Assembly: GCA_046563655.1 (NCBI GenBank)
Contig: CM102287.1
Location: 5,146,001-5,210,000 of the forward strand
Source: Yuukianura sp. NJ FZ-2021
Taxonomy: Eukaryota
Reading direction: 5' to 3'
DNA: 64,000 nt
The notes under the pieces were generated by a model. The model saw only the letters and a program-made list of their open reading frames with translations. It made no database searches and was not told the origin of the DNA. Shown here one piece after another: positions 1 through 39,400 of the stretch (position 1 is the stretch's first letter; the number at the start of each line of letters is the position of its first letter). The translations under genes and the position numbers were made by a program.

Positions 1-1125
1 TCCAACATACTTTTTCAAGGTCATATGAACAAGAATAGATTCCACAAAAGCCAGAAAAACAAACAATTGACAGATACTTGTAAAGTAGTCCATGGCTTTG
101 GCATAGGATGCTGCTGGAGACGCTTCGCTGAGACTGTATGCTTGCGTTGACAAAGCCAAAATTGTAGTGACGCCTAGCGACACTCTAGCTTCCGTTGCGG
201 TCACATCTAACCAAAATGAAGCCCATGATGTTGCGACGAGCAAACCGCAAGGTGAAAATGCTCTCATGACGTAGTAGCCCAATCTGCGCTTGAACGGTAA
301 ATGTGCTTCCAGTATCGTGTAAATACCACTGAAAGTACTGCGAGAATGTTCTGATTGATAGGGTTGGCCGACATGAAATTTCCGAAGTTGCGTTCTTTGA
401 CGTTCTTTGACAGTTCCAACTCCGAGGTATGGGTACCATTTCAGAGTGGAATTTGTGGCTGCTTGAGAGTATAAACCGAATCCAACCTCGCAAACACTTT
501 TGTCGAAGGGATACCATTTGACATCGACATCACACAAGACAACAGTGGAAATACGGCCGTTATACATTGTCGTACCATTTTTGAAAATCCGGATGAATGC
601 GTTTGATTTGATGTTGGAGTGTAAATAGCCGCTTTTTTCATTGTCTATGAAGATATCCGGAAACCAAATCCGAGAAGTGTCGGAAACAACCAAAACGTTT
701 GGAATCTTAGCGGATGAATTCAAACTCGGAAGCTTTTCATACTGATGACGTGGATCGTGCCAGAAAACGCGCAGCGTTAGCTGTGCTCCGAGTTCTTCTT
801 GAATATCATCAAAATAGTTGATACTTCTGAACAAAACTTGAAGAAAAACCGGAAATGGAAGCCGGAACTGTGAATCCGAATCATTACGCCCAGTCGATAC
901 CGTAGCGCCTTGTACCGGGTTGAGATATCGGTCGTCGGTATTTGGAATTCCCAACGAATAGTGCGGAGGTGGAGTAAATCGGTCGTACCTTTTTTCGTCA
1001 AGAATTTGTTCCAAAATTTCAGCTTCGATTCCTTGATTATGAATCTTTGTGCCCAAAATTTTCGAAAAATAAAAATTGAAAATCACGAGAATTTTCCAAA
1101 AAATTGAAAAAATTTGACTTTTCAT
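1..1125 (-). CDS. Cys-loop ligand-gated ion channel subunit, paralog 1 (intronless, GluCl-like; 3' end runs off the window)
   Basis: Manual translation from ATG 1125 is open to position 1: MKSQIFSIFWKILVI...CDVDVKWYPFDKSVC (Cys loop)...WLDVTATEARVSLGVTTILAL...AKAMDYFTSICQLFVFLAFVES. Absent from the ORF track, probably because it has no stop in the window. Confidence 0.93.
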   Translation of the reverse strand, partial: MKSQIFSIFWKILVIFNFYFSKILGTKIHNQGIEAEILEQILDEKRYDRFTPPPHYSLGIPNTDDRYLNPVQGATVSTGRNDSDSQFRLPFPVFLQVLFRSINYFDDIQEELGAQLTLRVFWHDPRHQYEKLPSLNSSAKIPNVLVVSDTSRIWFPDIFIDNEKSGYLHSNIKSNAFIRIFKNGTTMYNGRISTVVLCDVDVKWYPFDKSVCEVGFGLYSQAATNSTLKWYPYLGVGTVKERQRTQLRKFHVGQPYQSEHSRSTFSGIYTILEAHLPFKRRLGYYVMRAFSPCGLLVATSWASFWLDVTATEARVSLGVTTILALSTQAYSLSEASPAASYAKAMDYFTSICQLFVFLAFVESILVHMTLKKYVG

Positions 1126-1714: not shown

Positions 1715-3172
1715 CTAGCTCACATATTGTTGCAAGCAAACGAAAACAAAGATGCAAGTGAACGCTAGAAAAAGCGCTGGAAACGCAATTCGTGCAATTT
1801 TATCAATTCGTCGTGCCCTGGTCATTGCGTAAATACGATCTCCCTTTGACGCAGATGACGTTCCCGAGGGTCTTGTACTTTCAAGCTGTGCTTGCGCGAT
1901 ATCGCCTCGTTCCAACTCATTAAGTTCGACACTCCGCTTTTCAAAAATTCGATTCGAAACCTCCGCCCGTTTTTGCCTGAGGATCCATAAAATCTTTGCC
2001 AAATTTTTGATTCCCTTGTTTTTGGATTTCGATTTTGCGCTTGTCTTGACTTCTTTGCTTTTAACGTGATCCGTTTCAACATATTTCTTCAAGGTCATAT
2101 GAACAAGAATAGATTCCACAAAGGCCAGAAAAACAAACAATTGGCAGATGCTGGTAAAGTAGTCCATGGCTTTGGCATAGGATGATGCTGGAGCCGCTTC
2201 ACTGAGACTGTATGCTTGCGTTGACAAAGCCAAAATTGTAGTCACGCCTAGCGACACTCGAGCTTCAGTTGAGGTCACGTCTAACCAAAAAGCAGTCCAT
2301 GATGTTGCGACGAGCAATCCGCAAGGTGAAAATGCTCTGATCACGTAGTAGCCCAATCTGCGGTTGAACGGTAAGTGAAGTTTCAGTATCGTGTAGAGAC
2401 CACTTAAAGCACTGCGCAAATGTTCCGATTCATAGGGTTTACCGACAAGAAATTTCCGCAGTTGCGTTCTTTGACGTTCTTTGACGGTTCCAACTGCGAG
2501 GTATGGGTACCATTTCAAAGTGAATTTTGTGGCTGCTTGGGAGTATAGACCGAATTCAACTGTGCAAACGCTTTTGTCGAAGGGGTACCACTTGACATCC
2601 ACGTCACATAAGACAACAGTGGTAATCCGGGCGTTGTAATTTGTCGTACCATTTTTGAAAATCCAGATGAATGTGTTTGGTTTGATGTTGGAGTGTATAT
2701 AACCGCTTTTTTCATTGGATATGACAATATCCGGAACCCAAATCTTTGAAGTGTCGTAAACAACCAAAACGTCTGGAACGTTAGTAGATGAATTTAAAGT
2801 CGGAAGATGTTCATACTGATGTCGTGGATCATGCCAGAAGACACGCAGCGATAGTTGTGCTCCGAGTTCTTCTTGAATGTCGTCAAAATAGTTGATACTT
2901 CGGAACCAAACTTGAAGGAAAACTGGAAATTGAACTATCTGAGAACCCGAATCATTCCGTACCGGGTTGAGATACCCGTCGTCGGTTTTTGAAATTCCCG
3001 ACGAATAGTGTGGAGGTGGAGTAAATTTGTCGTACTTTGTTTCGTCAAGAATTTGTTCCAAAATTTCAGCTTCGATTCCTTGACTATGAATCCTTGTGCC
3101 CAAAATTTCCGAAAAATAAAAATTGGAAATCATGAGAATTCTCCAAAAAATTAAAAAAAATTGACGTTTCAT
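1715..3172 (-). CDS. Cys-loop ligand-gated ion channel subunit, paralog 2 (intronless, GluCl-like)
   Basis: Single ORF with a signal-like N-terminus, WxPD, Cys loop CDVDVKWYPFDKSVC, M1-M3, long loop and M4 (RIDKIARIAFP). Start set at MKRQ (3172) by alignment with the paralog starts; the ORF track extends it to 3211. Confidence 0.95.
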   Translation of the reverse strand: MKRQFFLIFWRILMISNFYFSEILGTRIHSQGIEAEILEQILDETKYDKFTPPPHYSSGISKTDDGYLNPVRNDSGSQIVQFPVFLQVWFRSINYFDDIQEELGAQLSLRVFWHDPRHQYEHLPTLNSSTNVPDVLVVYDTSKIWVPDIVISNEKSGYIHSNIKPNTFIWIFKNGTTNYNARITTVVLCDVDVKWYPFDKSVCTVEFGLYSQAATKFTLKWYPYLAVGTVKERQRTQLRKFLVGKPYESEHLRSALSGLYTILKLHLPFNRRLGYYVIRAFSPCGLLVATSWTAFWLDVTSTEARVSLGVTTILALSTQAYSLSEAAPASSYAKAMDYFTSICQLFVFLAFVESILVHMTLKKYVETDHVKSKEVKTSAKSKSKNKGIKNLAKILWILRQKRAEVSNRIFEKRSVELNELERGDIAQAQLESTRPSGTSSASKGDRIYAMTRARRIDKIARIAFPALFLAFTCIFVFVCLQQYVS

Positions 3173-3870
3173 TGTGGAAGTCTGTCTAACAAAGGGATGC
3201 CTTTTCAACATCGATTTGACATTAAACCTTGAAAACCTCTTCAGAAAACCTTGAAAATGATATTAACTGAAAGCTTTTAGTTGAGTAAACAGAAGTTCCT
3301 GAATATTGCAAAAATTTCGGTCATTTTCACACTTTACTAGTATTGAGGACATGAACCAAAATTAAAGCAATTGCATACATAAAAAATTAATGAAATTTTT
3401 TAACGTAATTTCTTAAGTTGAAATTCAGCAAGTGACGACGTGAGCGGTTTTGAATTCAACGTTTTCACTTCAATAATTTTCCAAAGTTTTTTTTTTGGAA
3501 TGTTTAACAATTTTTGATAATTTGATTGTTGGTGTGTGTGGCATTCCTAACTTCCTAACTACGTTCTCGGCCGTACTAGTTGAAGTGGTTCCATGGTCAA
3601 AAACAATTTGGTCAAAAAGTGAGAAGGTCAAAAACACGAAAACATATATTCTAGCCAAACTATTTGCAACGGTTTTCACTTTTTGATCAAATTATTTTGA
3701 CCATTTCAGCTGTATAAGTTGATGAAGCAAATTTCCTCTAGTTTTGCTCTAGGAGTTTCGAAATTTGGAAATTCTAAAAAAGATTTGTGAGATCTGTGTT
3801 TGCTAATTTGCTAAAGTACAGGTTACTGAGTAATTCGCAATTCCCAGCATTTGAAATTGATGTTTTGTTT

Positions 3871-5370
3871 CTAGTTGTCATACTGTTGCTTGCATATGAA
3901 CGCAAAACTGCAAATGAATCCCGTAAATATCGAAGGAAAAGCAACTCGTGCAATCCTATCGATTCTTTTAGCCTTTTTCAATGCACATGCTCGAGCACGA
4001 TCCAATTCTGCTGAAGGTGAAGATCCACTTTCGATCTGTTTTGGCGTAGGCTGTTTCCGAACATGTTGAAGATCGTCGAGCTCTGGAATGTCAATTAAGA
4101 CGCAACGCTTTTCAAAAATTCTGTTTTCAAAATTATCCGCCTCTTTCCGATTAACGCTCCATGCAATCTTGGCCAAATTTTTGTCATCCAATATTCTCTT
4201 TTCTCCTTTTTCATGATCTTTCTTGGCGTTGGGCTCTGCGCATGCCTTCTCCAGTTTGGTTTCGACGCAGTTCTTTACACCGTGTTTTCTGAGTGTGATG
4301 TGGACAAGGATCGATTCCATAAAAGCCAAGAAAACAAATACTTGGCAGATGATGGTGAAGCAATCCATGGCTTTAGCATACGCTGTTGTTGGAGCTGATT
4401 CGCTGATGCTGTAGGCCTGTGTTGACAGAGCCAAAATTGTCGTGACGCCTAGGGATACTCGTGCCTCAGTTGAGGTCACGTCTAGCCAAAATGTAGCCCA
4501 TGAAGTTGCAACGAGCAAGACGCAGGGTGAAAATGCTCTGGTGAGATAGAACCCCAGTCGTCGTTTGAATGGTAAGTGGATTATCACTACAGTGTTGTTT
4601 CCGCTGGGCAACTGTCGCATGGTTTCAGATAAGTAGGGCTGTCCCAAATTGAACTTGCGTAGTTGCGCCCGTTCCGAAATTTTGGAAACTCCTAAGATCG
4701 GGTGCCATTTTAGCATGGATACCGTGGCAGACATGGAGTAAAGACTAAACTCAAGTTCGCAGACGCTTTTGTCGAAGGGATACCATCTGATGTCAATGTC
4801 GCAAGTGACTACGGTGGTCACCCGGGCATTGTAAACTGTCGTTCCGTTTTTGAAAATCCGAACAAACACGTTCGGTTTGAGACTGGAGTGTAAATAGCCA
4901 CTTTTTTCGTTGGATATAAAAATGTCGGGGTACCAAATCCATGAAGCGTCGGAGAAAGTCACACTTTTCGGTACTTTTGAAGAATTCAAAGTCGGAAGAT
5001 TGTCATACCGATGGCGTGGATCGTTCCAGGTTAGTCGCATGGTCAACTGTGCTCCAAGCTCTTCTTGTCTGTCGTCAATGTAGTTGATATTTCTAAACCA
5101 AACTTGAAGAAAAACCGTCAATGGTGCGACTGTTGATTTGATTTGGTCCGTTCCGGTTGAAACCGTACCGGTTTGTACCGGATCCGTTTTGGTTGAATCC
5201 GGAATATAGTGTGGAGGCGGAGCAGATTTGTCGTATATTGATTCGTTAAGAATTTGGTCCAGAATTTGAACCTCGAGCTGGTGAGTTTGAAAAGAGCCAA
5301 GAACATTCGAAATCCGAAAATTCAAAATGAACAGAATTTTCAAAAACGTTGCTAAATTTTGACGTTTCAT
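3871..5370 (-). CDS. Cys-loop ligand-gated ion channel subunit, paralog 3 (intronless, GluCl-like)
   Basis: 499-aa single ORF; Cys loop CDIDIRWYPFDKSVC, M2 STEARVSLGVTTILAL, M4 RIDRIARVAFP. Confidence 0.95.
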   Translation of the reverse strand: MKRQNLATFLKILFILNFRISNVLGSFQTHQLEVQILDQILNESIYDKSAPPPHYIPDSTKTDPVQTGTVSTGTDQIKSTVAPLTVFLQVWFRNINYIDDRQEELGAQLTMRLTWNDPRHRYDNLPTLNSSKVPKSVTFSDASWIWYPDIFISNEKSGYLHSSLKPNVFVRIFKNGTTVYNARVTTVVTCDIDIRWYPFDKSVCELEFSLYSMSATVSMLKWHPILGVSKISERAQLRKFNLGQPYLSETMRQLPSGNNTVVIIHLPFKRRLGFYLTRAFSPCVLLVATSWATFWLDVTSTEARVSLGVTTILALSTQAYSISESAPTTAYAKAMDCFTIICQVFVFLAFMESILVHITLRKHGVKNCVETKLEKACAEPNAKKDHEKGEKRILDDKNLAKIAWSVNRKEADNFENRIFEKRCVLIDIPELDDLQHVRKQPTPKQIESGSSPSAELDRARACALKKAKRIDRIARVAFPSIFTGFICSFAFICKQQYDN

Positions 5371-5979
5371 TGTGTAAGTCTATTTAGCGAATGGGACTCA
5401 ATTTCGGTTATGGGTTGGGACCAGCACCTAGCATTTTGAAAAACCGTGAAATGAAAATGACATGAATAGAAGCTATTTAGCTAACTAAACAAAATGATCT
5501 CGGAACTTGAAATTGCTGTCACTTCTCACTCATCTACTTTTGAAATTATTTCGAACATAAATTGATATTCAAGCAATTGCGTAACAGCAAAGAAAAATAT
5601 CAAGGAAACGCCCTTGTGTTTGAGCTCAAAAGAATCTTGCCTCGAAAAACTAAAAATTTTGAACTGAATTCAAAAAAATTCAAGGAGATTCGCCCAAAAA
5701 CGATTTTTTTTTAAATGAGTTTAGCATTTTAGCGTATTTCATGCTTCAAAATAGTCTACCCTATTGTTTGTAGCACTAAATAGTGGCGGTACTTTCTGCG
5801 ACAAAGTGTCGTAAAAATGAATTGTGTCATTCACTTTTACAACAATGGATTCTTCACTATTGAAGGTTTTCGAAAGTGGATTTCCAAAATTAATTGCTCA
5901 AAACTTGAAATTGAATTTGAACGCGTTTCACTAGTTTTCAAAAGCCTTTTTCGCAATTCCAACCAACGACAGCACTACT

Positions 5980-6914
5980 ATGTCGTTCGTGCCTTTTGTG
6001 CTTGCAGTTTTTGCTGTTTACTGGAGCGCTGGGTCAGGAACTGGAAAAACTTTTAGCGTGACCCCATGCAATTACAAACCAATTGGAACGGTTCAAAAAA
6101 TTGGTAACCTCGATGTCTATTTCACGGGAGACATAAGTTCCAAAAGAGTGTTGATTGCTTATTACGACATTTTTGGATTCACCCCGCGAAATACAAATGT
6201 GAAACAAGTTTGCGACATTTTGGGCAAACAAGGATTTTTGGTCGTGCTGCCCGACTTTTACGGTGGAGAGTATTGGGACTTGGACAACTTTCCGCCAGTG
6301 TAATGTCACTGAACAGTTTTCATTTCTGATTTCAAATTTCGAAAAATTTAATTTGAAATTTTGAATTTCAGTCCAGCTGAACTTGGAGCTTGGTTGGGCA
6401 AAGTCGCACCATGGACCAAAGTTCTGGCTGATACGAAGAGTGTCATCGAGCACTGCAAGGGCAAAGGAGCCACTGGATTCGGAGTGTTCGGTTTTTGCTG
6501 GGGCGGAAAACAGTCCATTTTGCTCGGTGGGTCGGAATTGGCTGGAACCATCAAGGGTGGGGCCATGGCCCATCCGGCGGGACTTACGATGGCAGATGCT
6601 GAAAATAATAAAATTCCGATTCTGTTCATGCCGAGTAAAAACGAAGATGATTTGGTCTGTCCTGAAAATTTTGAAAAAGTAGAACAAGGAATTAACATAA
6701 ACCTTAAAATTAATTTTTTTTGTCGTAGCTCCCAATGGTAGAAGCAGTTCAGAAAAGACTGGGCAAAGACGCTGCAGAGCACTACAGATTTGATGACATG
6801 AATCATGGATTTTCAGCTGCTCGTGGAAACTTTAATGACACGACAAATCGAGCCAGAGTTGAAGAAGTCCTTGGTCACTTGATCAAATTCTTCAACAAGC
6901 ATCTTCCTGAATAA
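5980..6914 (+). CDS. Dienelactone hydrolase family protein (3 exons: 5980-6299, 6372-6654, 6729-6914)
   Basis: YDIFGF, VVLPDF, nucleophile motif GFCWGG, AHP, acidic NEDD, MNHGF; GT-AG introns keep the frame; hydrophobic N-terminus. Confidence 0.9.
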
Positions 6915-9443: not shown

Positions 9444-12400
9444 TCATTTGTGTCGTGGAAGTGTGGTTGAGGGGCCCTTGGAAGTAGATTGTTGGGGAGC
9501 ACTTTGATCTGACTGCGTAGACGACAGGGACTGGGAGTCCATTTTCCTTGGAAGCGTGGCCGAAGTTGGAAAGGCTGGTTCATCTCGCGGTTTCCAAATG
9601 GGTGAACCTAATACAATCCAAAACATGTTAAGGCCAGAGGTCAGAGGTAAAAATTTAGTAATTTCGAAAGATCACGAGGCCAAATAAAGGTTCCTTGACA
9701 ATCATTCAGCACTCTTTAACAGGTTGCGTAATATCTCAGCTGTTTACCAAAAAAATGTAAATACAGTGGATTCTCTAAATAAGGGACAGGAGCTCCTCCT
9801 CTTTCTCACTTTCACTCGAAGTCGCGGTACCGTAAAGTTTTAATTTTGGAGGGGACGTATGTTTCAGTTTATCGGCTTATTTTTACGATTGTTTTTTTTT
9901 TTGGTTAATTTTTTTTTGGTGCGAAACAAAAGTAATTAGCTAATTAAATGGAATTAACTAATATTAATATATATATATATATTATATCTGCGCACAAACT
10001 GCGCAACAGCGCACAAACTGCGCAACATCGCACAAACTGCGCAACAGCGCACAAACTGCGCAACAGCGCACAAACTGCGCAACAGCGCACAAACTGCGCA
10101 ACAGCGCACAAACTGCGCAACAGCGCACAAACTGCGCAACTGCGCACTGTATATAATATATTATATTATATAACCTGTTTAATAAGGGTGACATTCACAA
10201 CGTAATTTGCATATAATATACCATATAATATTGATTCGTATATAGATATCACATATAATTAGCATTAATATATGAATATTATGTATATTAATATTATTGT
10301 ATTATTGTATATTAATATTAATTATATACTCTGAACTTCGAAACAGGAAATTTTCATTAGAATGGTGTTCCTAGCCTTAAATTCCATATAACTGACCGTT
10401 TACCAGAAATCTTACGGTACTGGGGGAGGCGCCTACTACCAATCCTCCAATCGTGATTTTTTCCCTTATTTAGAGAATCCACTGTAACAAACAACGGAGT
10501 ACCAAAAGTGCCAATTCCAAAAATTAGATTTTCTGGTACCAATTTGTATAAAAAATTTTAAAAATCCGTTGAAAATATTATGGTTACGGGAACCTGGAAT
10601 GCAGATTAACTTTTTTGTGAAATCTAAAAAAAACACTAGTCATTACGCAACCTGTGAAAAAAAAACTTGACAACAAACCTTGTCAACAAACCTTGAGTTC
10701 AACTTACTGGGTTCCGGCGGAGGGGGGACTGAAGGGAACTGATGCGAGGACTGAATGAGCTTAGCGACCGAACCGGTCGATCCGGCAGAAATTGTTGATG
10801 TCGTGGACAACGTCAAGTGATTCGGTGTTTGACCTAGCATGCCTTTCATTCTGGGCATTGTCGTTGAACCACTTCGAACAGTCGGTACCAACATTTTACA
10901 ACTCGCACCGGCATCTTGATCTCGATTCGGATCGGTCGATCCACCTTCCGAGTCCTCCCGAGCCAACTTCCTACCTTGCTGAAATCCACCGGACGAATCC
11001 GAACTTTCTTGAGAACGAAGTCGTGCCGAACCGGTTTCCAAGTTTCCAGCGGAGTGCCGTTGTGGTGGTTTTGGTGGTTTCTTTCGTCCTAAAAACCAAA
11101 ACACAACGAAATCCCAGTGAATACAACCCAAAGTAATTGCTAGTTTCAGCGTTCCGGATGCTCTCAGCACTCAAAAGAAGTTTTCGCTTGAAGAATTTCA
11201 ACTTTTCTGAAAACTTTTCTCCAATTGTCTAAAAGAAACCACTTGAAACAGAAGAAGAAGACTTAAGCTGGCGTTTTCTTTTCAAAAAGTCCGCGCCATT
11301 TTCTTCTCCTTTCTAAAAGAAAACTTCTGTTTTCATCTTAAACTTTTTAAATGGTTCCTCATCTTCACTTGAATTCGGAAAAGGATAAAAGCGAAAATGA
11401 AATGTCTGTTATTTACTTAGGATCCGTGCTCATTCAGAGCCCAACTTTTCCTGGATTTCGAGATCTTTTCAATTCACACTCAGACTAAACTTTTTTCAGT
11501 CCCTCCAGAGTTCCTTGACACCAAATTTTTCGAATTGGTCTCTTAAATTTCATGCTGGTAGATTCCAACAAAGTCATTGATTGCATTTGAAAAACTTTTT
11601 TGCTGCTGTCTTTCGACAATCAGAAAGAGAGCAAAAGTTTGAGCCATACAGTAGACTCGTCACTTTTGTGCTCTACTTTTTCTAAAAAAAAAAGTTGCTA
11701 CAAACGAGAAAGAGAAAGATGAACAGAATCGAAAAAAAAAGTTTTTAGGTTCCCGTTAACTTTTCTTTCATTAAAAGTTGGCAATTTAGCAACTTTTATA
11801 GCGCGTTGCAAAAATGTTAAGCGCCAATTCACTCCCTTTTATGCGCTTTATCTATTGCAACTTTGAAAGTCCTTGAAACATTAGAAGTTTTTCTGAGCAG
11901 AAAAAATTTCAAGCAATTCGTTCCATGTTGCTTGTTCGAATACAGGTTTTCAGTTTTTCAGAAAAATTTCACCTAAACTTTGGAAGTCTAAAATCTGAAA
12001 TTTTGAAATTTCGAAATTGGAAAATTGCTAGATTAGGTTATGTTGATTGTAAGAAAAGCGGTTTTACATTAAAATGTACAGTACCTAGAGTGTGAGCTTG
12101 TCGGTGAGGTGGAATGCACGGTCGTTCGGAGGGTTCACAACCTTCGGGCACTGCGTAGTGTGACGACGACTCTCCGCCGCTGTCAGTAGTTTTGTACGGT
12201 AAGCTCATATTTCGAACTGAATCTCGAATAATGTGTCGAATATTTTTCAAAAAGGGATTTCGAAGTTCTGCTGTAGAATTGGAAAGGAGATAAACTTTTT
12301 CTGATCTTCTTTGGGCTTGGTTACGAAGATGAATCAGTTCCCAGGCAAAGTTGGGTCCACTGGATTCGGGTTCTGGGTCACGCGGGTCACCGACTTGACG

Positions 12401-24400: not shown

Positions 24401-27400
24401 CAAACCACCCTGTTATCGAGTATTTTGTTTTTGCCTTATTCAGACAAAATTTCTTGGCCCCGCCGTCCACTCTTCCGTACAAGCTAAAGAATAAAAAACG
24501 CAAAAGCAATCCAACCCAATTTGGACAAAGTACCATGGCCTTAAAAATTCTAGGAAATAAGGCAATGTTTAAAAATTTAACTTTTTGTACTCACACTGAC
24601 CTAAATATTCAATTGACCTTTGAGGTTTGCCTTTCCAGCGGAACGGCTTCTTTATAGAATGCGGTGCTTTAGATGGAGAACGTTTATCCAATACTTTGTT
24701 TCTGGAAAGAAACTACGGTTGGACTGGAATTTTAGTTGAAGCTGAACCAAACAACTATAAAAGGTTGGTTTCAAAACACCGCAAGGCCTGGACATCACAC
24801 TCGTGCATGTCTCCAAAAGAAACTGCAGAGAAAGTAAGTGGAAACGGATCTCTTTTTCCAGAAATCCAGTTAGCGGCAACTTTTTTTTAAAAATGTTTTG
24901 CAGTTGACTCTAGTTGGAATCGACTACGGCTCTAAATCTGGCGGATTGACATTGATGAACAACTCGATTCCGCTGAAGAAGTTTGGGGGCTATGTTAATT
25001 CTAAACGTAAACCAGTAGAAGTACAATGCTTTCCACTTTATACCTATCTGTTGGCACTCGGTAGAACGGAAGTGGATTACTTTAGTCTGGACGTAGAAGG
25101 AGCCGATTTTGAAATTCTAAAGACAATTCCATTCGACAAAGTCATTTTCAAGGTAAAATTTTGGTTTTAGTTTTTTGACCTTCTAAAAAGTAACAAATTT
25201 TGAAAAATTTCTTTTGCTGCGTAGGTTCTGGAAGTAGAAGTTGCATGGGTGAACGAAGGGAAGCAAGCAGTGAGGACATTTTTAGAACAACATGGCTACG
25301 TTTTTGTAAAAGAAGTAGCGGTAGATTACATTTTTGTACACAATTCAGTAAAATTGCCAGTCGGTTTAGTACTTTAGTCCTCGAGACTGAAAATTCTCTA
25401 TTCGTTATTAAAACTTTCTTTTTTGAATTATAAAACTCAATGTAAATAATTCAAAACAGGGACTATGAAAGGTGTCCGATGGTCCTTATGCATTATAATG
25501 GGGGGTATTGTACTTTAAATGCGTAGTGTAAATGCCGGTGTATTTTGGGTGCATGAACTGCGTCAAAATCATGCTCCAGTTCCCAAAATTGTTCATAACT
25601 GTGCGTAATCGACAAAAAACAACGTTGGAGAAACCACATTTGAGGCGAAATGCCTCTGCTAAGCAGGACGTGACATGACACTTCAAAATTTCACAAATGG
25701 TTTGGGATTATAGTTTTATTTTTAATGTTTGACCCTTTGTTTACTGTGAACAAATTGTGTTGCTAATAGCAATTTCGATAACTGAACACAAATGTACGGA
25801 TCCAATCGAACAGCATAAAAGTTGTTTCTATTCCTCATCTGAAGTTGAGTCTAATGGTGAATCCCTTCCAATTTCAATGATAATGTGCTTCCTAATTCTT
25901 ACAATTATTTACTTTTAGGGCATCCAAGTTCGGACACTTTTCAACAAGTTCGAACTTCGAACTCAAAGCACTTTGCTGTCACTTAAACTCCGCGTATTTC
26001 CTGCTTTTCTTTTTACATTCCGGATCACTCTCGGCGACATTTAGAACGTACATTCGGTCTCCTTGCAGTTTGCCACCGCCACAAAAACTAATTTGTATAA
26101 AAAAAAATTGTATCTCCACGAATGAATATTTCCAGACTTTAAATTAATTGAATGGGTCCTTAAAATTTTGCCACCTTGTAATCCAGATTTTTTTTAATCC
26201 AGATATAATGTATGTGGAGATATTTTTAGCGCAAATAATTCTATCCTGGGTTGCTGGAGATATTATTTTATAATTAAATATAATTACGGCAACAAAAATT
26301 CCGTTTCATTTCCCCTGTAACTGAATTTTGAATGGAAAAAGAAAATCAACAAAGGGTCAAACATTAAAAATTGAACTATAAGTACCGCAATTAACGGGCA
26401 CTTCATTTTACCATGCATGAGTGAAATATAGCAGTTAATTCTAACAATTGTAGTTTCTAGATATAAAAACTGCACCTACCGACTCCGGACTTCACTTTAA
26501 TAAAGTGTTCAGTAAGGTAACATTTTTCTTTAAAATTTCAATAAGAACGAAAACCGCAAGTGAACTCCTTGAACCAATTTCTTAACGTTATATAAAAGTC
26601 GAAATTTAAATTGACTCATTGGTACCTTGGAAAAGAAAAATTTCAGATTTCATATTCACGTTTCGGTTCATTGCTGATTGTTTAGTCGGCTGCTTTGCAC
26701 TTGCTATATTTCTGGAGTAACTACGGAACATGCCCATGCCCTTTCACCTATGCACATCCCATCTTATTTATTCTAATAGTTAATGATCTATTAGACGCTA
26801 CCAACAGTGTTCAGAAAGTGTTCAAAAATGGTCCAAAAATCGTCTACGAGCTTCAAATTACGTGTATTGCTCGTCGGTTTCATTCTGTTTTTGGTCACCC
26901 GCTACTTATTTAATATTTTGTGCAAAAATGGTGCACGCTGCACCGATCTCAGCAAATTTTCACAAGATGACCCTGAACTTGTAGAGTGTTTGAAGTAAGA
27001 TTTGTTCAAATTGCTAACTTTGGTAAAAATTTCTTCAAAAAGTACAGTATTAATTGTTATTTCTTTATTTTTGACTCATTTAGACAAAATTTCTTGACTC
27101 TGCCGTCCACTCTGCCGTACAACCTAGAGAATCCAAATCCCGAAAGCAATCCGACGCAATTCGGACAGAGTAGCATGGCCTTAAAAATTCTAGACTATAA
27201 GGCAAGGTTTAGAAATTTAACTTTTTGTGATCATTTGACTTGAGGAGTCAATTGACCTTTGACATTTGTTTTTTCAGAGGAATGGCTTCTTCATTGAATG
27301 TGGAGCCTTAGATGGAGAACTTTACTCCAATACTTTGTTTCTGGAAAGAAACTACGGTTGGACCGGACTTTTAGTTGAAGCTGAACCAAACAACTACAAA

Positions 27401-30400
27401 AACTTGTCTTCAAAACACCGCAAGGCTTGGACATCACATTCGTGCCTTTCTCCAAAAGAAACGGCAGAGAAAGTAAGTGAAAACAGATTCCTTTTCCCAG
27501 AAATCCATTTAACGACATCAGTTTCTTCAAATGTTTTGCAGTTAACTCTAGTTGGAATCGAGTACAGTTCTAAATCTGGCGGATTAACATTGATGAAGAA
27601 CTCAGTTCCGCTGAAGAAGTTTGGGGGCTATGTTAATTCTAAACGTAAACCAGTAGAAGTACAATGCTTTCCACTTTATACCTATCTGTTGGCACTCGGT
27701 CGAACGGAAGTGGACTACTTTAGTCTGGACGTAGAAGGAGCCGATTTTGAAATTCTAAAGACAATTCCATTCGACAAAGTCATTTTCAAGGTAAAATTTT
27801 GTTTTAGTTTTTTGAGCTTCTCAAAAAATGACAAATTTTAAAAAATTTCTTTGCTGCGCAGGTTCTCGAAGTTGAAGTTGCATGGGTGAACGAAGGGAAG
27901 CAAGCAGTGAGGACATTTTTAGAACAACATGGCTACGTTTTTGTAAAAGAAGTAGCGGTAGACTACATTTTTGTACACAGTTCAGTAAAATTGCCAGCCG
28001 GTTTCGTACTCTAGTCGAACCGGTTTCGAGACTCAAAGATCTCTGTTCGTTATTGAAACTTTCTTTTTTTGTATTATAAAACTCAATGTAAATAATTCAA
28101 AACAGGGACTATGAAAGGCGTCCGATGGTCCTTTTGCATTATAACGGCGGGTATTTTACTTCAAATGCGTAGTGTAAATTTGCCGGCGTATGTTGGGTGC
28201 ATGAACTGCGTCAAATCATGCTTCAGTTGCCAAAATTGTTCATTACTGTGCATAATCAATTGACAAAAAAACAACATTGCAGAAAACGCATTTGAGTCGA
28301 AACGCCTCTTTGCTAAGCAGGACGTGACATGACACATGTAAAAATTTTACAAATGGTTTGGGATTAAGTACCGCAATTAACGGGCACTTCATTTTACCAT
28401 GCATGAGTGAAATATAGCAGTTAATTCTAACAATTGTAGTTTCTAGACATAAAAACTGCACCTACCGACTCCGGAATTCACTTAAATGATGTAAGTGTAC
28501 AATATAAGGTAACATTTTTCTTTAAGATTTCAATAAGAACGAAAACGTAAGTGAACTCCTTGAACCAATTTCTTAACGTTATAAAAAGTCGAAATTTTAA
28601 TTGACTCATTGTTACCTTGGAAAAGAAAAATTTCACATTTCATGTTTACGTTCTGGTTCATTGTTTACGACGGCTGCTTTGCATTTGCTACATTTCTGGA
28701 GTAACTACTGAACATGACCTTTGACCTACGCACATCTCATCTTATTCATTCTAATATTTAGTACTACTCAGGGTTGGTAGAGGATAGGGTTAACCGTTCC
28801 GGAGGCTTTTTGAAAAAAACAAACTTTTTGAGCTGGTTGAATTTTTTCAACCAGCTTTGTTTGTCGTAGAAACAATTTTAAATAAATTAATTTTTAGTAC
28901 AGTGCGTTTCTTAAAATCCTTGAGGATTAATTTGCTACAATTAAAAGTAAGTGTGTGAACAACATATTGAAAACTGAAAACTCTGAGGTCACCGAGTGAA
29001 CTTATGACAGACAGCCCAATGCAAGTAATATTTTGTTGGAAATGGCTTGATAAGCTGATTCGGAACAGAATTTATAAAAGAATTTCTGGAAGAATTGGTA
29101 ATTTCAAAAAGGATAAACTGCGCAGTTTGTGCGCATTTTATGCGAAGTTTAGAATTTATTTTGGCTTTGACCTTTGACCGGGGAGGTCAAATGTCAAATG
29201 ACCAGGGGAGTTCGAGCTATCCCGTCAGGCACTACCATCTCCCAAAGGAGATGTCCCAAAACCCTGTCGAAACGGTACCCGGTGCTATTCGAATGAAATG
29301 TTAACCAGTTGTTAGAGTCAATGTTGGGGTCATATTTGCAAATTTTCAGCCCCCTAGAAACGATAGGTCACGGGTCACGGGGGTCGAAGGTCACCATGTC
29401 ATCCTATGACGACCCCATGCAAGTAGCATATCGTTGGAAAAGTCTCGATCCACTGATTCAGAAAATGTATACATGTCAATATTGATGACGTAAGACAACG
29501 AAGTTATGGCGCCGGAAATTCGAAATCGCTAGTCCAACCGCTTCCGAATTTTGACTTCCTTTGACCCCGAGTAACCCGTGACCTATCGTTTCTAGGAGGC
29601 TGAAAATTTGCAAATATTACCCCAACATTGACCCTAACAACTGGTTAAAATTTCATTCGAATAGCACCGGGTACCGTTTTGATAGGGTTTTGGCTCATCT
29701 CCTTTTCATTCGAATCAAAAAAATTAAGGGGAAACGCAAATTGTCGATTTCACAAATATGCTCCGACTTACTTAAGTTCATTTCGTAATTCATCGCTTAT
29801 GAAGATTCGCTCTGTATATTGAAATTCAAAATTCAAAATCGTCTTAGCAACAGATTCAGTTAGCTGATTGAAGTCAGCCAGCTCAAAAAGTTTGTTTTTT
29901 TCAAAAAGCCTCCGGAACGGTTAACCCTATCCTCTACCAACCCTGGTACTACTGAAGATCTAGACGCTACCAACGGTGTTCAGAAAGTGCTCAGAAAATG
30001 GTCCAAAAATCTTCTACCAGCTTCAAATTGCGTGTATTGTTCGTGGGTGTCATTCTGTTTTTGGTCACCTTCTACTTATTTCCTACTTTGAGCCAAAACG
30101 GTGAACGCTGCGCCGATCTCACCAAATTTTCACAAGATGACCCTCAACTTGTAGAGTATTTGAAGTAAGATTTGTTCAAATTGCTAACTTTGAAAAAATT
30201 TCTTCAAAAAGTACAGTACTAATTGTTATTTCTTTATTTTTGACTCATTTAGACAAAATTTCCTGACTCTACCGTCCACTCTACCATACAACCTAGAGAA
30301 TCCAAATCCCGAGAACAATCCGACCCAATTCGGACAGAGTAGCATGGCCTTAAAAATTCTAGACTATAAGGCAAGGTTTAAAACTGAAATTTTTGTACTC

Positions 30401-33400: not shown

Positions 33401-36400
33401 TTTGGAAATATCGAGATCGTGATTCGGATAGCTTTTATAGAATTTTCTGGACTCCTGCCAAAATCCGTCGTGTTCTTGTTCGTGTTGACACTACTAATTG
33501 AAACACTTTCCATTTCTAGTATTTGCCAATCAATTAATTCCGTGAACATTTTCAACCTAAAAGCCTCCCCCCTCATTGAACTGAGAAAGAAAGCGCTTAA
33601 AGTCTTTACGTTTTGTGACCCAGCATTAGGTTCAACCACTTAGATCAGCACAATTTCTGTTCAAATACAAATTCAGTCTCAGTACCTTCCTAAAAGCACT
33701 AACCACCACACCCAATCCTAACACCGCTTCCAGAAAGTACAAAATATTTTTGCTATGTACGCTTATGCTAGTATATCACTACCATCAGTTGGTAACCACC
33801 ACGTGGTTACAAAAGTAAACTTTTGCCGTACTTCAACCCAGTTCTTCTACTAAGACACTCATGTTTTTCGAAAATGATTTTTTCTTCTTCTCTGAAGCTT
33901 CAGTACTCTCGTTAGTGTTTCAACGCACGAAATTTTTTTAGAATTTGTTATGTTTTAATTTTCAAAAATGCTGGATTTCAATTTTTGAAAGTCCTCACGA
34001 GAGCACTTACTATTCTGAACTGGATTTCGGGATTTCCATTGAGAAATGGAACAGCAATAGCCTTCACAAGGGTATTTGAGGTTGAGTGTTGATGTTGAGG
34101 CGTAAGATCAATACCACGAGTCTCGTAATATTACAAGTGAAAGTACAGATAGAAAGTACTTGAGCAATATTTGAAATAGATTGAGTTTCAGTCCAAGAAA
34201 ACATTTTTAAAAAGAGAAGGAAGGAACTATGCCTAGGAAATATCGAACCATTATTCAGTTCTTTTCTTTAGAAATATTTCAAAACTGCATCCATATCACC
34301 AACCTCCACCATTTTTCAAAGTATCCATCCACGCTTTTCATCATCAAAAGAGAAAAACAGCATCCACGGTGTGGTTTCAATTGTAAACCAAACAAAATAG
34401 AAAACAGACAACGAGAAATAGTACTTCCTGTGCTTATGAAAAGTGAAAACGAAATTTGAAAAGGAAAGGATGTTCCATGTGTATAGTAATGGACCACAAT
34501 AACCGTCTGCTTGTCACATCTCCAACTTCTATTCAGAGACGCCTCAAGGAATCGATTTCCAGGAACCTAGGAATTCCTTCGCTATTTCTATAAATCCTGT
34601 ACCCTACTTTCTCCTGGAGTGTTCTGGTTATTATTCTGGTTAGACTGGAATTGTTATCCTGCTTCCATGGACAAACGACTCAATTTCAAATGATGGCTCT
34701 CTCGACGAGGATCTTCCAGTTTTCAAACACGTTTGGTTCAGTTGAGCTTTTCAAAATCATTTCTGGACAAGATGGTTCAACGGCAAGAGTGTTTTGGACA
34801 AACTCGAGTTTTAACGTGGACGATAGTTTGAGTAGCTGAGGCGTTTTTTAGCTTAGGTTTCAGTACAGCCTTTAAGGGCAAGATGAAAGGACAAGTGAAG
34901 ATCGTTGAAATAATTGTCACCTAACTGAAAGATTTCAAGATCTAAACTGACTTTTAGTCTAAAGTACAAACCAGTTTTGCCGTTTACAGAAAGCCACCAC
35001 ATACGGCGTGTCAAAATTTTGTGTGAGTTCTGTGCCAGTAGGTTACATTTTAAAATGTTGTTGTGAAACAGTCAGTTTTCCATAATAACGAAAGTTCATT
35101 TGAGTTCATAGTCAAATTGTCATTGCTAAAAATAGATCATTGTTAGACTTTTCTTAACAAACACAACGTGCGTACAACTTCTCTTTTGTTGTAATTAGAG
35201 CTTTTGTCTACAACTTGTCTTTTGTTGTAATTAGACGTTAAGCCTACAAATGATTTCCATACATACAAAGTAGGGTAGAATTCGACTTTGTTTTACTCCG
35301 CTGGTTTCCGGCTGAGACCCTATAAAAAGGGCTCAGTCCGGCCAGCAAGATTCATTCTGTTTTCTGCTCTTGACCTCTGGTCAATAGGACTTAGTGTCCT
35401 AACTCTCATGCCTTGTCACAAACTTTGTCCGTTGAATAAAGTTCATTAACCTTTCATTATTGCAAAACTGCAAAGAACAATAGTAGTGGAAGATTTGTTT
35501 CTTTTATTTAACCATTTCACTACATTTGGTGGCACGAGCTGCTGAAACCTATGGCTTCCACAGGAAGCGAAAATGCTCAAACAATGACCTCTGGGTCAAC
35601 GCATGCGTTGCCCAGAGTTAATGACCTTAAGGCGGTGGTCCGTTCTGTGCCTCTATTCGATGGCAAATCGAACGTTGACCTGTTGACCCTGAGGTTGGAT
35701 GCCCTATTGGCGTCAGGTGCTTTGGACAGCGTTACGCTGATCCTAAACTTCCATCAATTAATGGAAGGGGAAGCACAGGAATGGTGGCGCTGGTCACAGG
35801 CCAAGTTCATTCGTGACTTGACCTTGGCCAATGCAGCCACAAGATGGACAGAGCTCAAAGCTGAGCTCCGATCTTTTTATGACCCCGATGAGGTCAAATT
35901 AGAAATGAAGAAAAAATTAAAGGGAATTCTTCTTGTTAACTGCGACACTCCATCTGAGTATGTCGCCAAACGACTGTCATGTCTGTCGGTCATTGACCCC
36001 AACATGTCAGCCGAAAAACAAGTTGAAAAGCTGATTAAGGGCTTACCAGTTTCCATGAGAAACATGATGACCCTTGTTGACCCTAAGTCACCTGCCGAAT
36101 TTTTGCAAAAACTAAGAAAATGCGAAAAACCTACGTTTCAAGACAGACGAGGTCAATTCCAAAATTCAAATTCAGGTAGTTCCAGTTCTGGAACACAAAA
36201 ATCTAAACCAAATTCAAATTCCAGTGATGGGAAGGAAACACCTTCAACTTCAGACACTGATTTGAATAAAAATTCAAATCAGCATTTCAAAAAACGAAAA
36301 TTTTGCACATTTTGCAAAAAGCCAGGTCATACATTGGATGACTGCTGGCACAAAAACAAAACCAAATCGGGAAGTGCTTCTTTCTCCTCAGCAGTTTTAC

Positions 36401-39400
36401 CCGAGGAACAAACTGAGGAGACAAACACAAAAAACTAATTGTCACGGGTGATTACGCACACCCCAATTTAAAAACAGCGTACAATTTCAGTTTACAAAAA
36501 GTAAACAATTCTAAAATAGGCAAAAATACTTTAATATTTGAAAATTCAAATTTTTCAAAAAATCAAAATAAGTCAAATACTAGCGAAAGTTACGCTAGTA
36601 AAGTAAAACAAAATTTAAATAAAATCAATTATTTTACGGAATCCGTTCCGGAAACCTCTGTAGAGGGCACTAAAGTGCAAGTACCGTTCAGAAAATGGCG
36701 GTACGGTCCAAAACTTTTTACCGAACTTACGTTCGGTGACAAAACTTTTAAAATTCAAGTTGATGAAGGAGCTAACTTTAGCAGCATCGGCTTGGACTTT
36801 CTGAATGACCTCAAAGGTCAAATTCACAAAAGATACAAAATTCCACCTGTCATAGTCAATACAGCCAACAGCCAAACAAGCATAGATGAAATGGTTGAAT
36901 TGAAGTTCCACTTCAACGGTGTTCTCACAATTTGGGGATTTCACATAATGAAGGGACTCAAGCCAAAAAAATGCTACTTGGGACTGATTGGACTACAAGA
37001 GACTTAAATAAACAGGAAATTACAAATATTGATGATGAAATACCAATTAATAATTGTCCTAAAAATGAGGAAAAGCCTCAACCAAATAAATTCAAACTGA
37101 CAAAAACAGTACGGCTTCAAGCCAGAATGACCTCCAAGGTCGCTGTTAAGTCAGAGAAAATTATTTCCGGTTCAATTATTATGAATCCCAACATGACACT
37201 TTATGAGACACAGGCCTTACTTCAACCTTATGTCTATTCAATTGTTAGGGATCATGAAACCGAATTATGGATTACAAATTTGAATGACTTTGAAGTGACC
37301 TTGAACAAAGGCACAACAATTGCTTATGGCGAAATTTGTCCACCAAAGAAAAACATTTATTCATTTACTGAAGATGGCGACACCATCGATTCAGGTGAAC
37401 AAACTTTTGGAAATTTTGAGCCAAAACTAGGAGACAATTTGTCCAATGATGAGAAAAAAGAAATGAGAAATTTGATTAATCAATTTCCAACGCTATTTGC
37501 GGAAGATGAGACCGAATTAGGGAAAACAAGCCTCGTTCGTCACCAAATTGACACGGGCACAAATCCTCCAATTAGGAATTATCCCTATCGAGTTTCCTAT
37601 CCACAAAGAAGTAAAATTAAGGAAAAAATAAATAAGCTTCTTGAAAGTGACATTATCGAAGAATCAATTTCTCCTTGGTCATCTCCAGTAATACTCGTTC
37701 CTAAAAAGGACGGAAGTTCAAGACTGGTGATTGACTATAGAAAATTAAATGCGATTACCAAGAAAAACTCTTATCCATTGCCTAGAATGGACGATGCATT
37801 GGACAGACTGTCAGGTGCCAAGTACTTTACTGTACTAGATTTGCTATCTGGGTTCTACCAAATTGAGTTAGACCCAAAAGACAAAGAAAAAACGGCATTT
37901 ATAACTCCTGACGGCCTTTACCAATTTAAGAGACTACCTATGGGACTCTGTAATGCTCCATCTAGTTTCCAATATTTAATGGATTTGGTTTTATTAAACT
38001 TGAAATGGAATATTGTACTCGTTTATTTGGATGACCTTGTTGTTTGGGGAAGAACTTTTGAGGAGCACAATTCTAGACTCTTCACTGTTCTAAACCGACT
38101 GAAAGAAGCGGGCTTAACCCTAAAAATCAGCAAGTGCATTTTTGGAACCAATAAACTTAATTATCTGGGCCATATTATTTCAGAAAATGGAATTCAAGTA
38201 GATCCGGATAAAACAATTGCAATTGATAATTTTCCAATTCCAAAAAATCAAACCGACATTAAATCATTTCTGGGAATGTGCGGTTACTATAGACGCTTCA
38301 TCCAAAATTTTGGTAGAATTGCAATCCCCCTCACTCTTTTAACAAGAAAAAATCAAAAATTTGACTGGGGTGAAAAACAAAATGAAGCCTTTCAAAAATT
38401 AAAATCATGTCTGGTCAAAAGTCCAATTTTGTCATACCCAATGGACAATGTCCCAACGGAAGTGCACTGTGATAGCAGTGGGTATGGGATCGGGGCAACC
38501 CTGGTCCAAATCCAAAATGGAAAACCCTGCGTCATAGCTTACGCTAGCCGAAGTATGACAGAAGCGGAACGAAAATATTCGGGACCCGAACAAGAATGTC
38601 TAGCAGTAGTCTTTTCTGTTAAAAAGTTTAGGCCATACATTTATGGAACCAAGTACACAGTGTACACTGATCACTATGCCCTAAAATGGTTGTTTTCCAT
38701 TAAAGATGTAAATAGTAGGCTGGCTAGATGGTCAATTACACTGCAAAATCAGGACATGACTATTGTACATAGACCAGGGAAAACTGCGAATGACGTTGAC
38801 CCCTTGTCACGTTACCCAGTTGACCCACCAGAGAGCATGGACAGCTCTGAAGTTCTTGTTTTGGATGGCGTCCCTGACTTGTTTACAATAAACGAATTAA
38901 AAGTCAAACAGAGATCTGACCACTTTCTAAAATCGATTATTCTTTACATTGAGTCCGTGGAAAACGAAGAGTATAATATACCTCAACCTAATGTCAAACA
39001 ATTACAGGACTATAGTTTACAAAATGGAATTTTATTGTTTCCGAATTTTGCACCTTCAGGCAACCAATGGAAAATTGTTGTTCCAAAATGCTTAAGAAAA
39101 GCTGTTTTAGATTCTCTGCATTGTGGAGATTTAGCAGGCCATTTTGGAATTACGAAAACTTGGGAATCAGTCCGAAGTAGGTTTCATTGGAAAGGAATGT
39201 ACCGTGATACAAGAAAATATATCTTAGGGTGTGAAGTTTGTCAGAAATTTAGGAAAAGAATTGGTCCTGAGTATGGTTTGATGCAAAGTTTTCCTGAGGT
39301 GACGAAACCCTTCGAAAGAGTGGGAATTGATTGGATTGGACCCTTTGTAAAGTCAGAAAATGGCAACAAATATGCAATTGTTTTCATTGACCACTTCACC

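Follow-up and report, generated by a model that had tools for sequence, protein, structure and literature searches.

Inhibition by glutamate in invertebrates is ascribed in textbooks to glutamate-gated chloride channels (GluCls), on which the avermectins act; most insects possess one GluCl gene. In nematode channels the P-A-R motif at the entry of the second transmembrane helix (positions -2' to 0' of M2) tracks anion selectivity (bioRxiv 2021.10.06.463318), and a swap of the linker reverses a behaviour (PMC4562599). Several channels of the GABA and amine branches depart from this motif. The nematode proteins EXP-1 and LGC-35 are reviewed as GABA-gated cation channels of anion-channel ancestry (PMC8841521), which agrees with the use of EXP-1 as an example of a cation channel in the initial annotation of the DNA described here. 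LGC-50, a serotonin-gated cation channel also of nematodes, has Ser for Pro (bioRxiv 2020.09.17.301382), and insect GRD/LCCH3, which are devoid of PAR, are cation-permeable (PMC12309072); a GRD-like match in our protein library carries Asp at -1'. All of them passed from anion to cation permeability by changes at the M2 entry, as is proposed below for another lineage, but their substitutions are different ones and none is derived from a GluCl. Spider GluCls without PAR have been described, but with no acidic residue at that place (PMC4569296). A literature search, which covered few subscription papers, yielded no GluCl-derived cation channels and no account of the springtail genes treated here.

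The subject of this report is a stretch of 64,000 nucleotides, called the window, from the springtail Yuukianura sp. NJ FZ-2021 (GenBank assembly GCA_046563655.1, contig CM102287.1, positions 5,146,001 to 5,210,000). It contains three GluCl-like genes with Glu in place of the Pro of P-A-R.

Results and Discussion

Three tandem channel genes

Three open reading frames in tandem are situated at the left end of the window (Table 1), each intact from Met to stop and with an intron-free coding region. The final 119 codons of gene 1 lie outside the left edge and were added from the adjoining stretch of the genome. The domains PF02931 (ligand-binding) and PF02932 (transmembrane) scored over the Pfam cut-off in all three genes, and each product showed the C-x13-C loop domain followed by the four transmembrane helices of a Cys-loop pentameric channel; the frame of gene 2 comprises a hydrophobic N-terminus, the Cys-loop and M1 to M4. 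Genes 2 and 3 are 58-59% identical. A predicted model of gene 2 (mean pLDDT 77.7) had its best fold matches with GlyR, RDL, GABA-A and GluCl; the 60 PDB sequence matches and 34 fold matches listed were all GlyR, GABA-A/RDL or GluCl, i.e., members of the anion-type branch. Generic Cys-loop clusters were the sole result of a search of the ESM Atlas.

Repeats reach upstream of the start codons of the three genes, which is expected from tandem DNA duplication. A pyrimidine-rich stretch ending in AG is present nine bases before each ATG, and a repeat termed D8, about 80 bases upstream of the ATG, is common to all three genes and contains TCAKTT, which we take to be an initiator-like motif. The AG-ending stretch and D8 possibly represent an intron in the 5' UTR or a shared promoter.

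Table 1. Positions of the features discussed, in the window (plain numbers) and elsewhere in the genome (Mb).
Feature	Location	Strand	Remarks
Gene 1 (P0170, 494 aa)	1..1125	-	Cys-loop subunit; PF02931 and PF02932 on the part inside the window
Glu -2', gene 1, residue 312, GAA	190..192	-	replaces Pro
Gene 2 (P0001, 485 aa from Met)	1715..3172	-	Cys-loop subunit, single ORF
Glu 20' (outer ring), gene 2	2198..2200	-	equivalent Glu: 124-126 (gene 1), 4399-4401 (gene 3)
Glu -2', gene 2, residue 303 from Met, GAA	2264..2266	-	replaces Pro
Loop D Arg, gene 2 (amino-acid-agonist motif)	2843..2845	-	kept in 3 of 3 genes
Loop G Arg, gene 2 (ecdysozoan GluCl glutamate-recognition Arg)	2900..2902	-	kept in 3 of 3 genes
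Gene 3 (P0002, 499 aa from Met)	3871..5370	-	Cys-loop subunit, single ORF
Glu -2', gene 3, residue 302 from Met, GAG	4465..4467	-	replaces Pro
Pyrimidine-rich stretches ending in AG	1126-1145, 3173-3190, 5371-5390	-	one per gene
Dienelactone hydrolase family gene	5935-6914	+
Imperfect tandem repeat	9944-10205
RhoGEF gene	12038-60874	-
FkbM methyltransferase gene	27263-27841	+
LTR retroelement	35512-40126	+
Further E-A-R GluCl-like genes (P0167-P0169)	C5:7.07 Mb (pair), C3:12.94 Mb
Canonical AVPAR GluCl genes	C7:7.742 Mb (L015), C8:9.565 Mb (L007)
Divergent GluCl-like pair	C4:10.175 and 10.230 Mb (L009, L010)		ETSAR
Divergent GluCl-like gene	C4:15.129 Mb (L020)
RDL-like genes, Tyr at 2'	C5:5.387 and 5.390 Mb (L011, L008; tandem), C1:6.366 Mb (L019)		ARVYLG
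Second acidic family, C7	0.426-0.436 Mb (L060), 2.187 Mb (L052), 6.209 Mb (L065)		EAR, ECR and DCR in the family
Second acidic family, C3	1.609 Mb (L055), 2.078 Mb (L062), 4.429 Mb (L057)
Second acidic family, others	C2:4.885 (L064), C4:3.338 (L029), C5:9.193 (L059), C6:5.21 Mb (L061)

Glutamate at the pore entry

The M2 entry reads (S/A)-T-E-A-R-V-S-L-G in all three genes, the motif being WLDVTATEARVSLGVTTIL in gene 1 and WLDVTSTEARVSLGVTTIL in genes 2 and 3. Alignment to glycine receptor chains and an arthropod GluCl gave Thr at -3', Glu at -2', Ala at -1' and Arg at 0' with no indel, and a slip of the alignment, by which the Glu would really stand at -1', was ruled out on this ground. Where ecdysozoan GluCls have PAR, the three frames have EAR; the replacement of P-A-R by T-E-A-R in all three channels, as first annotated, was confirmed with the register exact and the Glu codons located.

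Substitution rates were estimated by the method of Nei and Gojobori for the three gene pairs. Values of dN/dS were 0.36, 0.23 and 0.26 over the whole genes and 0.06, 0.03 and 0.02 over positions -7' to +20', which are rough since this segment has 28 codons. Synonymous divergence among the genes reached about 1.2, and the codon for Glu -2' itself varies synonymously, with GAA in two paralogs and GAG in one. In pairwise comparison the M2 sequences were on average 97% identical, against 70% for the extracellular domain and 51% for loop C. The M2-entry segment with Glu -2' is under strong purifying selection and is the product of neither chance nor decay. A reading of the genes as duplicates in decay or as products of misassembly, with an incidental Glu, might be suggested by their diverged ligand-binding loops, but it is extremely improbable in view of the intact frames, the divergence values given above and the presence of relatives in other samples and in named species; a pseudogene or artefact was rejected on intact ORFs and dN/dS.

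The residue at -2' was compared in 148 domain rows covering the site, which originated from the best 150 of 8126 library proteins (HMMER, E 0.001 or better): Pro was present in 115, another neutral residue in 24 and Glu or Asp in nine, and these nine cluster with the window's genes. From the 150 proteins, 143 were used, yielding 150 domain rows; P0011 was dropped as a near-copy of P0156, and six had no domain of sufficient length.

Relatives and descent

A search of the springtail's own genome gave 32 matches from 58 candidates. Three further E-A-R GluCl-like genes are present in the genome, and two canonical AVPAR GluCl genes were noted. The canonical GluCl exon showed 97% identity over 150 residues to the GluCl of Allacma fusca and 76% over 157 residues to that of Drosophila. 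Since canonical PAR-bearing GluCls have been retained, the copies in the window would have been free to change. Other loci with deviating M2 sequences were observed as well, namely a divergent GluCl-like pair, apparently identical, with an unusual M2, a divergent GluCl-like gene with no recognisable Arg0', and RDL-like genes with Tyr at 2' beside canonical RDL.

When the E-A-R paralogs were used as queries, the best 120 of 686 matches included 119 new proteins, 115 with AVPAR and four with AVEAR. The latter are from Folsomia candida (XP_021944512.2), Orchesella cincta (ODN00163.1) and O. dallaii (CAL8126770.1), the fourth being an ENA protein. Patterns of the extracellular domain, which are independent of M2, caught 14 metagenome loci. 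Four of these are close to the window's genes, each a single ORF over the covered span, with Asp, Asp, Asp and Gly (P0298) at -2'. In the resulting group of 23 rows, -2' is Glu in 17 and Asp in five, although this count of 22 acidic rows in 23 is partly circular because most rows were picked by motif; position -3' varies (T, V, I, L, M). The interchange of Glu and Asp points to charge as the property which is kept across the relatives.

In a FastTree of 158 rows with the linker columns kept, the nine acidic rows fell within one group of 17 rows together with six genes of the genome (support 81), no Pro-bearing row was inside the acidic group, which serves as a check on the choice of rows by motif, and placement in the GluCl group had a support of 99. 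A more careful maximum-likelihood tree was constructed from 57 rows and 271 columns after removal of the M1-M2 linker columns. The 23 rows, 22 of them acidic, formed one clade (84/86) inside the ecdysozoan GluCl group (99/99), with the window's genes in a subclade of ten rows (99/94). A quick tree of 76 rows again gave the GluCl placement (95) and did not recover the 23 rows as one clade. Both linker-free trees thus place the window's genes inside the GluCl group, and their GluCl ancestry is well supported; the chloride-channel ancestry originally proposed was upheld and could be narrowed to this group. An origin from GABA receptors of the EXP-1 or GRD type was rejected on the basis of the 57- and 76-row trees. 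A single origin of the acidic -2' residue across the 23 GluCl-type rows is moderately supported (84/86 and 81), with the qualification that it was not recovered with more taxa.

The AVEAR proteins of Folsomia and Orchesella, which are annotated as "glutamate-gated chloride channel", resemble the window's genes in having Glu -2' in the same register and a position inside the GluCl group, at an identity of 37-38%. Unlike the window's proteins, they retain the disulfide of loop C and lack Glu20'; XP_021944512.2 keeps every tabulated residue of the GluCl glutamate site. A functional study of these proteins was not found in the literature.

Ligand site

Ecdysozoan GluCls need an Arg in loop G for the recognition of glutamate, and an Arg in loop D is part of the agonist motif (PMC4338433). 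Both residues, the partners of the glutamate carboxyls, are present in all three genes, as is the Tyr of loop B. The remainder of the agonist motif is incomplete. The Ser of loop E is replaced by Asn in all three proteins, the loop C threonines are lost, with Ser at the equivalent of Thr197 in each, and the loop C Tyr and the loop A aromatic residue are each found in two of the three; both loop C Cys, which would form the second disulfide, are absent throughout, loop C being the least certain part of the binding-site alignment. The Gly in M3 that is needed for high ivermectin sensitivity (PMC4569296) is replaced by Ser, Ile and Ser, respectively.

A carboxylate would be a plausible agonist; glutamate itself is an uncertain candidate. 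With the Arg of loops G and D kept, the channels would probably respond to glutamate or another carboxylate, and affinity or specificity would be altered because loops C and E are remodelled. In comparison with C. elegans GluCl alpha (PDB 3RHW) and Allacma fusca CAG7818669.1, which belong to the same fold and family group (99/99), the window's proteins share the Arg of loops G and D, the loop B Tyr, Arg0', Thr6', Leu9' and Thr13'; they differ in Glu -2', Glu 20', the missing loop C disulfide, the loss of loop E Ser and loop C Thr, Ser or Ile for the M3 Gly, a core identity of 35-39% and an intron-free coding region.

The partial erosion of the agonist site (loop E Asn, loop C Thr and disulfide lost) resembles that of non-binding subunits, and the products might be partner subunits only, which would form heteromers with a canonical PAR-bearing GluCl or with one another's relatives. 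One to three Glu would then be present in a pore that still passes mainly chloride, its conductance or reversal potential being tuned. Non-PAR subunits such as GRD have been taken as heteromer partners (PMC4569296), and canonical GluCl genes are available in the genome; yet residues of the two binding faces survive in part (Tyr of loop B and the Arg of loops G and D in all three genes), core identity to the canonical GluCl is so low, as given above, and an acidic ring, even if incomplete, should increase the permeability to cations, so that this arrangement seems quite unlikely to us.

Charge selectivity

In a charge scan of the homomeric GABA rho1 receptor, cation permeability was highest with P290E (-2'), at PNa/PCl 3.4 ± 1.2 and PK/PCl 2.1, whereas P290A remained anionic (PNa/PCl 0.05), P290K gave 0.09 and a -1'E mutant was roughly non-selective; pore size did not change, and true cation channels (nicotinic, 5-HT3) are given there with PNa/PCl of 20-53 (PMC2174155). 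Arg0', Thr13' and a linker of full length are common to rho1 P290E and the window's proteins. The mutant has Pro at 2', where they have Ser, and it is a single engineered, cation-preferring variant of a distant vertebrate GABA receptor, whereas the window's genes occur in nature under selection and are equipped with Glu20' in addition. In the cation channel GLIC, a cation-binding ring of Glu is located at the position which its authors number -2' (PMC3590989).

These precedents bear on two statements of the initial annotation. Its caveat was that the Glu occupies -2' and not the classical -1'; the position is exact, but it is hardly a weakness, considering that P-2'E had the strongest effect in rho1 and that the GLIC ring is at -2'. 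The association of Pro loss and gain of an acidic residue with cation permeability holds for P-2'E in rho1; it does not extend to Pro loss alone, for P-2'A stayed chloride-selective.

A second acidic residue, Glu20', with Ser and not Arg at the neighbouring position 19', was found in all three genes and in three of the five closest relatives, while canonical GluCls have Ala or Gln at 20'. Position 20' is acidic in nicotinic receptors, and residue 13' has a bearing on charge selectivity (PMC4569296). Acidic 20' is the sole feature shared with nAChR and 5-HT3 receptors: in place of the Glu -1', shorter linker and hydrophobic 13' of classical cation-selective channels, the window's proteins have Ala -1', the full linker and Thr13'. 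Several features of the anion type are kept, namely Arg0', the polar Thr13', the full-length M1-M2 linker and an M3-M4 loop of net basic character (K+R versus D+E of 21/7, 23/11 and 25/19), and because of these, cation selectivity would be partial; a mixed or moderately cation-preferring channel is more likely than a strictly selective one. The Lys of loop A, which we take to be an extracellular anion ring, is also kept. A complex prediction in which the M1-M3 segment was entered four times scored 0.07 and was set aside.

The same anion-type features would suit channels which still conduct chloride, with Glu -2' protonated, pointing away from the pore or engaged with Arg0'; its selection would then relate to gating, to desensitisation or to a response to pH or metals. 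The flexible -2' side chains in GLIC (PMC3590989) and the Gly at -2' of the close relative P0298 are compatible with this, and the protonation state of the -2' ring in rho1 was described by the authors as not known (PMC2174155). Such channels are nevertheless unlikely, since the identical substitution reversed selectivity in the anion-type background of rho1 (PMC2174155), the Glu/Asp interchange across the group points to charge, and Glu20' pushes in the same direction.

Channels that descend from chloride channels but are excitatory or non-selective are therefore the best reading of the sequences, and we assign a probability of about two in three to the proposal that the genes encode GluCl-derived subunits whose channel conducts Na+ and K+ at least as readily as Cl-. 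At the intracellular constriction of the pore, the five -2' carboxylates would form a ring whose charge prevails over that of Arg0'. The Glu residues at 20' would form another ring, and as position 19' is devoid of Arg, the outer mouth would be favourable to cations. PNa/PCl should be about 1-4, below the range of nicotinic or 5-HT3 receptors, and the open channel would depolarise the cell.

A second acidic family

A profile of M1-M2 run over the genome loci detected at least 11 M2 entries with Glu or Asp at -2' in another, intron-rich family with a different M1, besides the six E-A-R genes described above, 17 entries in which the -2' residue is neutral (GluCl, RDL, others) and one locus which could not be placed in register; these counts are a sample from three protein searches of the genome and not a census. 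Nine genes of the second family, available as rough assemblies from exon fragments, formed a clade of their own (97) outside the GluCl group, adjacent to a library protein with Ser at -2' (99). A common origin of both acidic families was rejected (AU, p = 0.0002; 36 rows). Thus, the change from Pro to an acidic residue at -2' seems to have occurred on two or more occasions in this lineage, and its repetition in the second family suggests convergence. In the tandem trio at L060, the middle copy (about 5135-5200, + strand) seems to lose its frame at the end of M1; it may be a pseudogene, or the assembly may be wrong or an intron overlooked at this place.

Implications

Because two defining features of GluCls, PAR and the full agonist motif, fail in the window's proteins, these should not be filed as chloride channels in spite of their GluCl descent. 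A natural group from several species which has been maintained by selection and carries a substitution known to reverse selectivity in the laboratory opens to direct test the long-debated question of whether one acidic -2' ring is enough to flip the sign of a synapse in evolution. Several proteins filed as chloride channels in springtails, among them one of Folsomia candida, a model species of ecotoxicology, may in fact be excitatory and, without the M3 glycine, may be poorly sensitive to ivermectin; to look for cation channels gated by glutamate, XP_021944512.2 would be the most suitable protein.

A wider interpretation, which is offered tentatively and which we regard as rather doubtful, is that springtails flipped inhibitory Cys-loop channels to excitatory ones at least twice by a change from Pro to Glu or Asp at -2'. 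One case would be the GluCl line, with the first pentameric glutamate-gated cation channels, where the window's intron-free, pocket-remodelled array might serve as excitatory chemoreceptors, a hexapod counterpart of the octopus chemotactile receptors; the other would be a separate family without relation to it, with at least eleven genes. Cephalopod chemotactile receptors are described as intronless, expanded, non-selective cation channels with a remodelled pocket (PMC11526382). The intron-free tandem layout and the diverged loop C of the window's genes recall these receptors, as an analogy only; the cephalopod receptors stem from nicotinic receptors and were already cationic, whereas the window's genes stem from an anion-type GluCl.

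Other observations

An intron-free ORF of a nicotinic-type Cys-loop protein was encountered on a metagenome contig with 24% GC (L046:1437-2894), where DnaJ-like and other densely packed genes are its neighbours; the context looks like that of a large DNA virus or a protist. In the window itself, the channel array is adjoined by the dienelactone hydrolase family gene, and the imperfect tandem repeat, which is partly palindromic, is intergenic. The long RhoGEF gene, presumably still life/Tiam-like, spans most of the window; the FkbM methyltransferase gene is nested opposite to its strand, and one of its introns contains the LTR retroelement, in which domains of gag, reverse transcriptase, RNase H and integrase were recognised.
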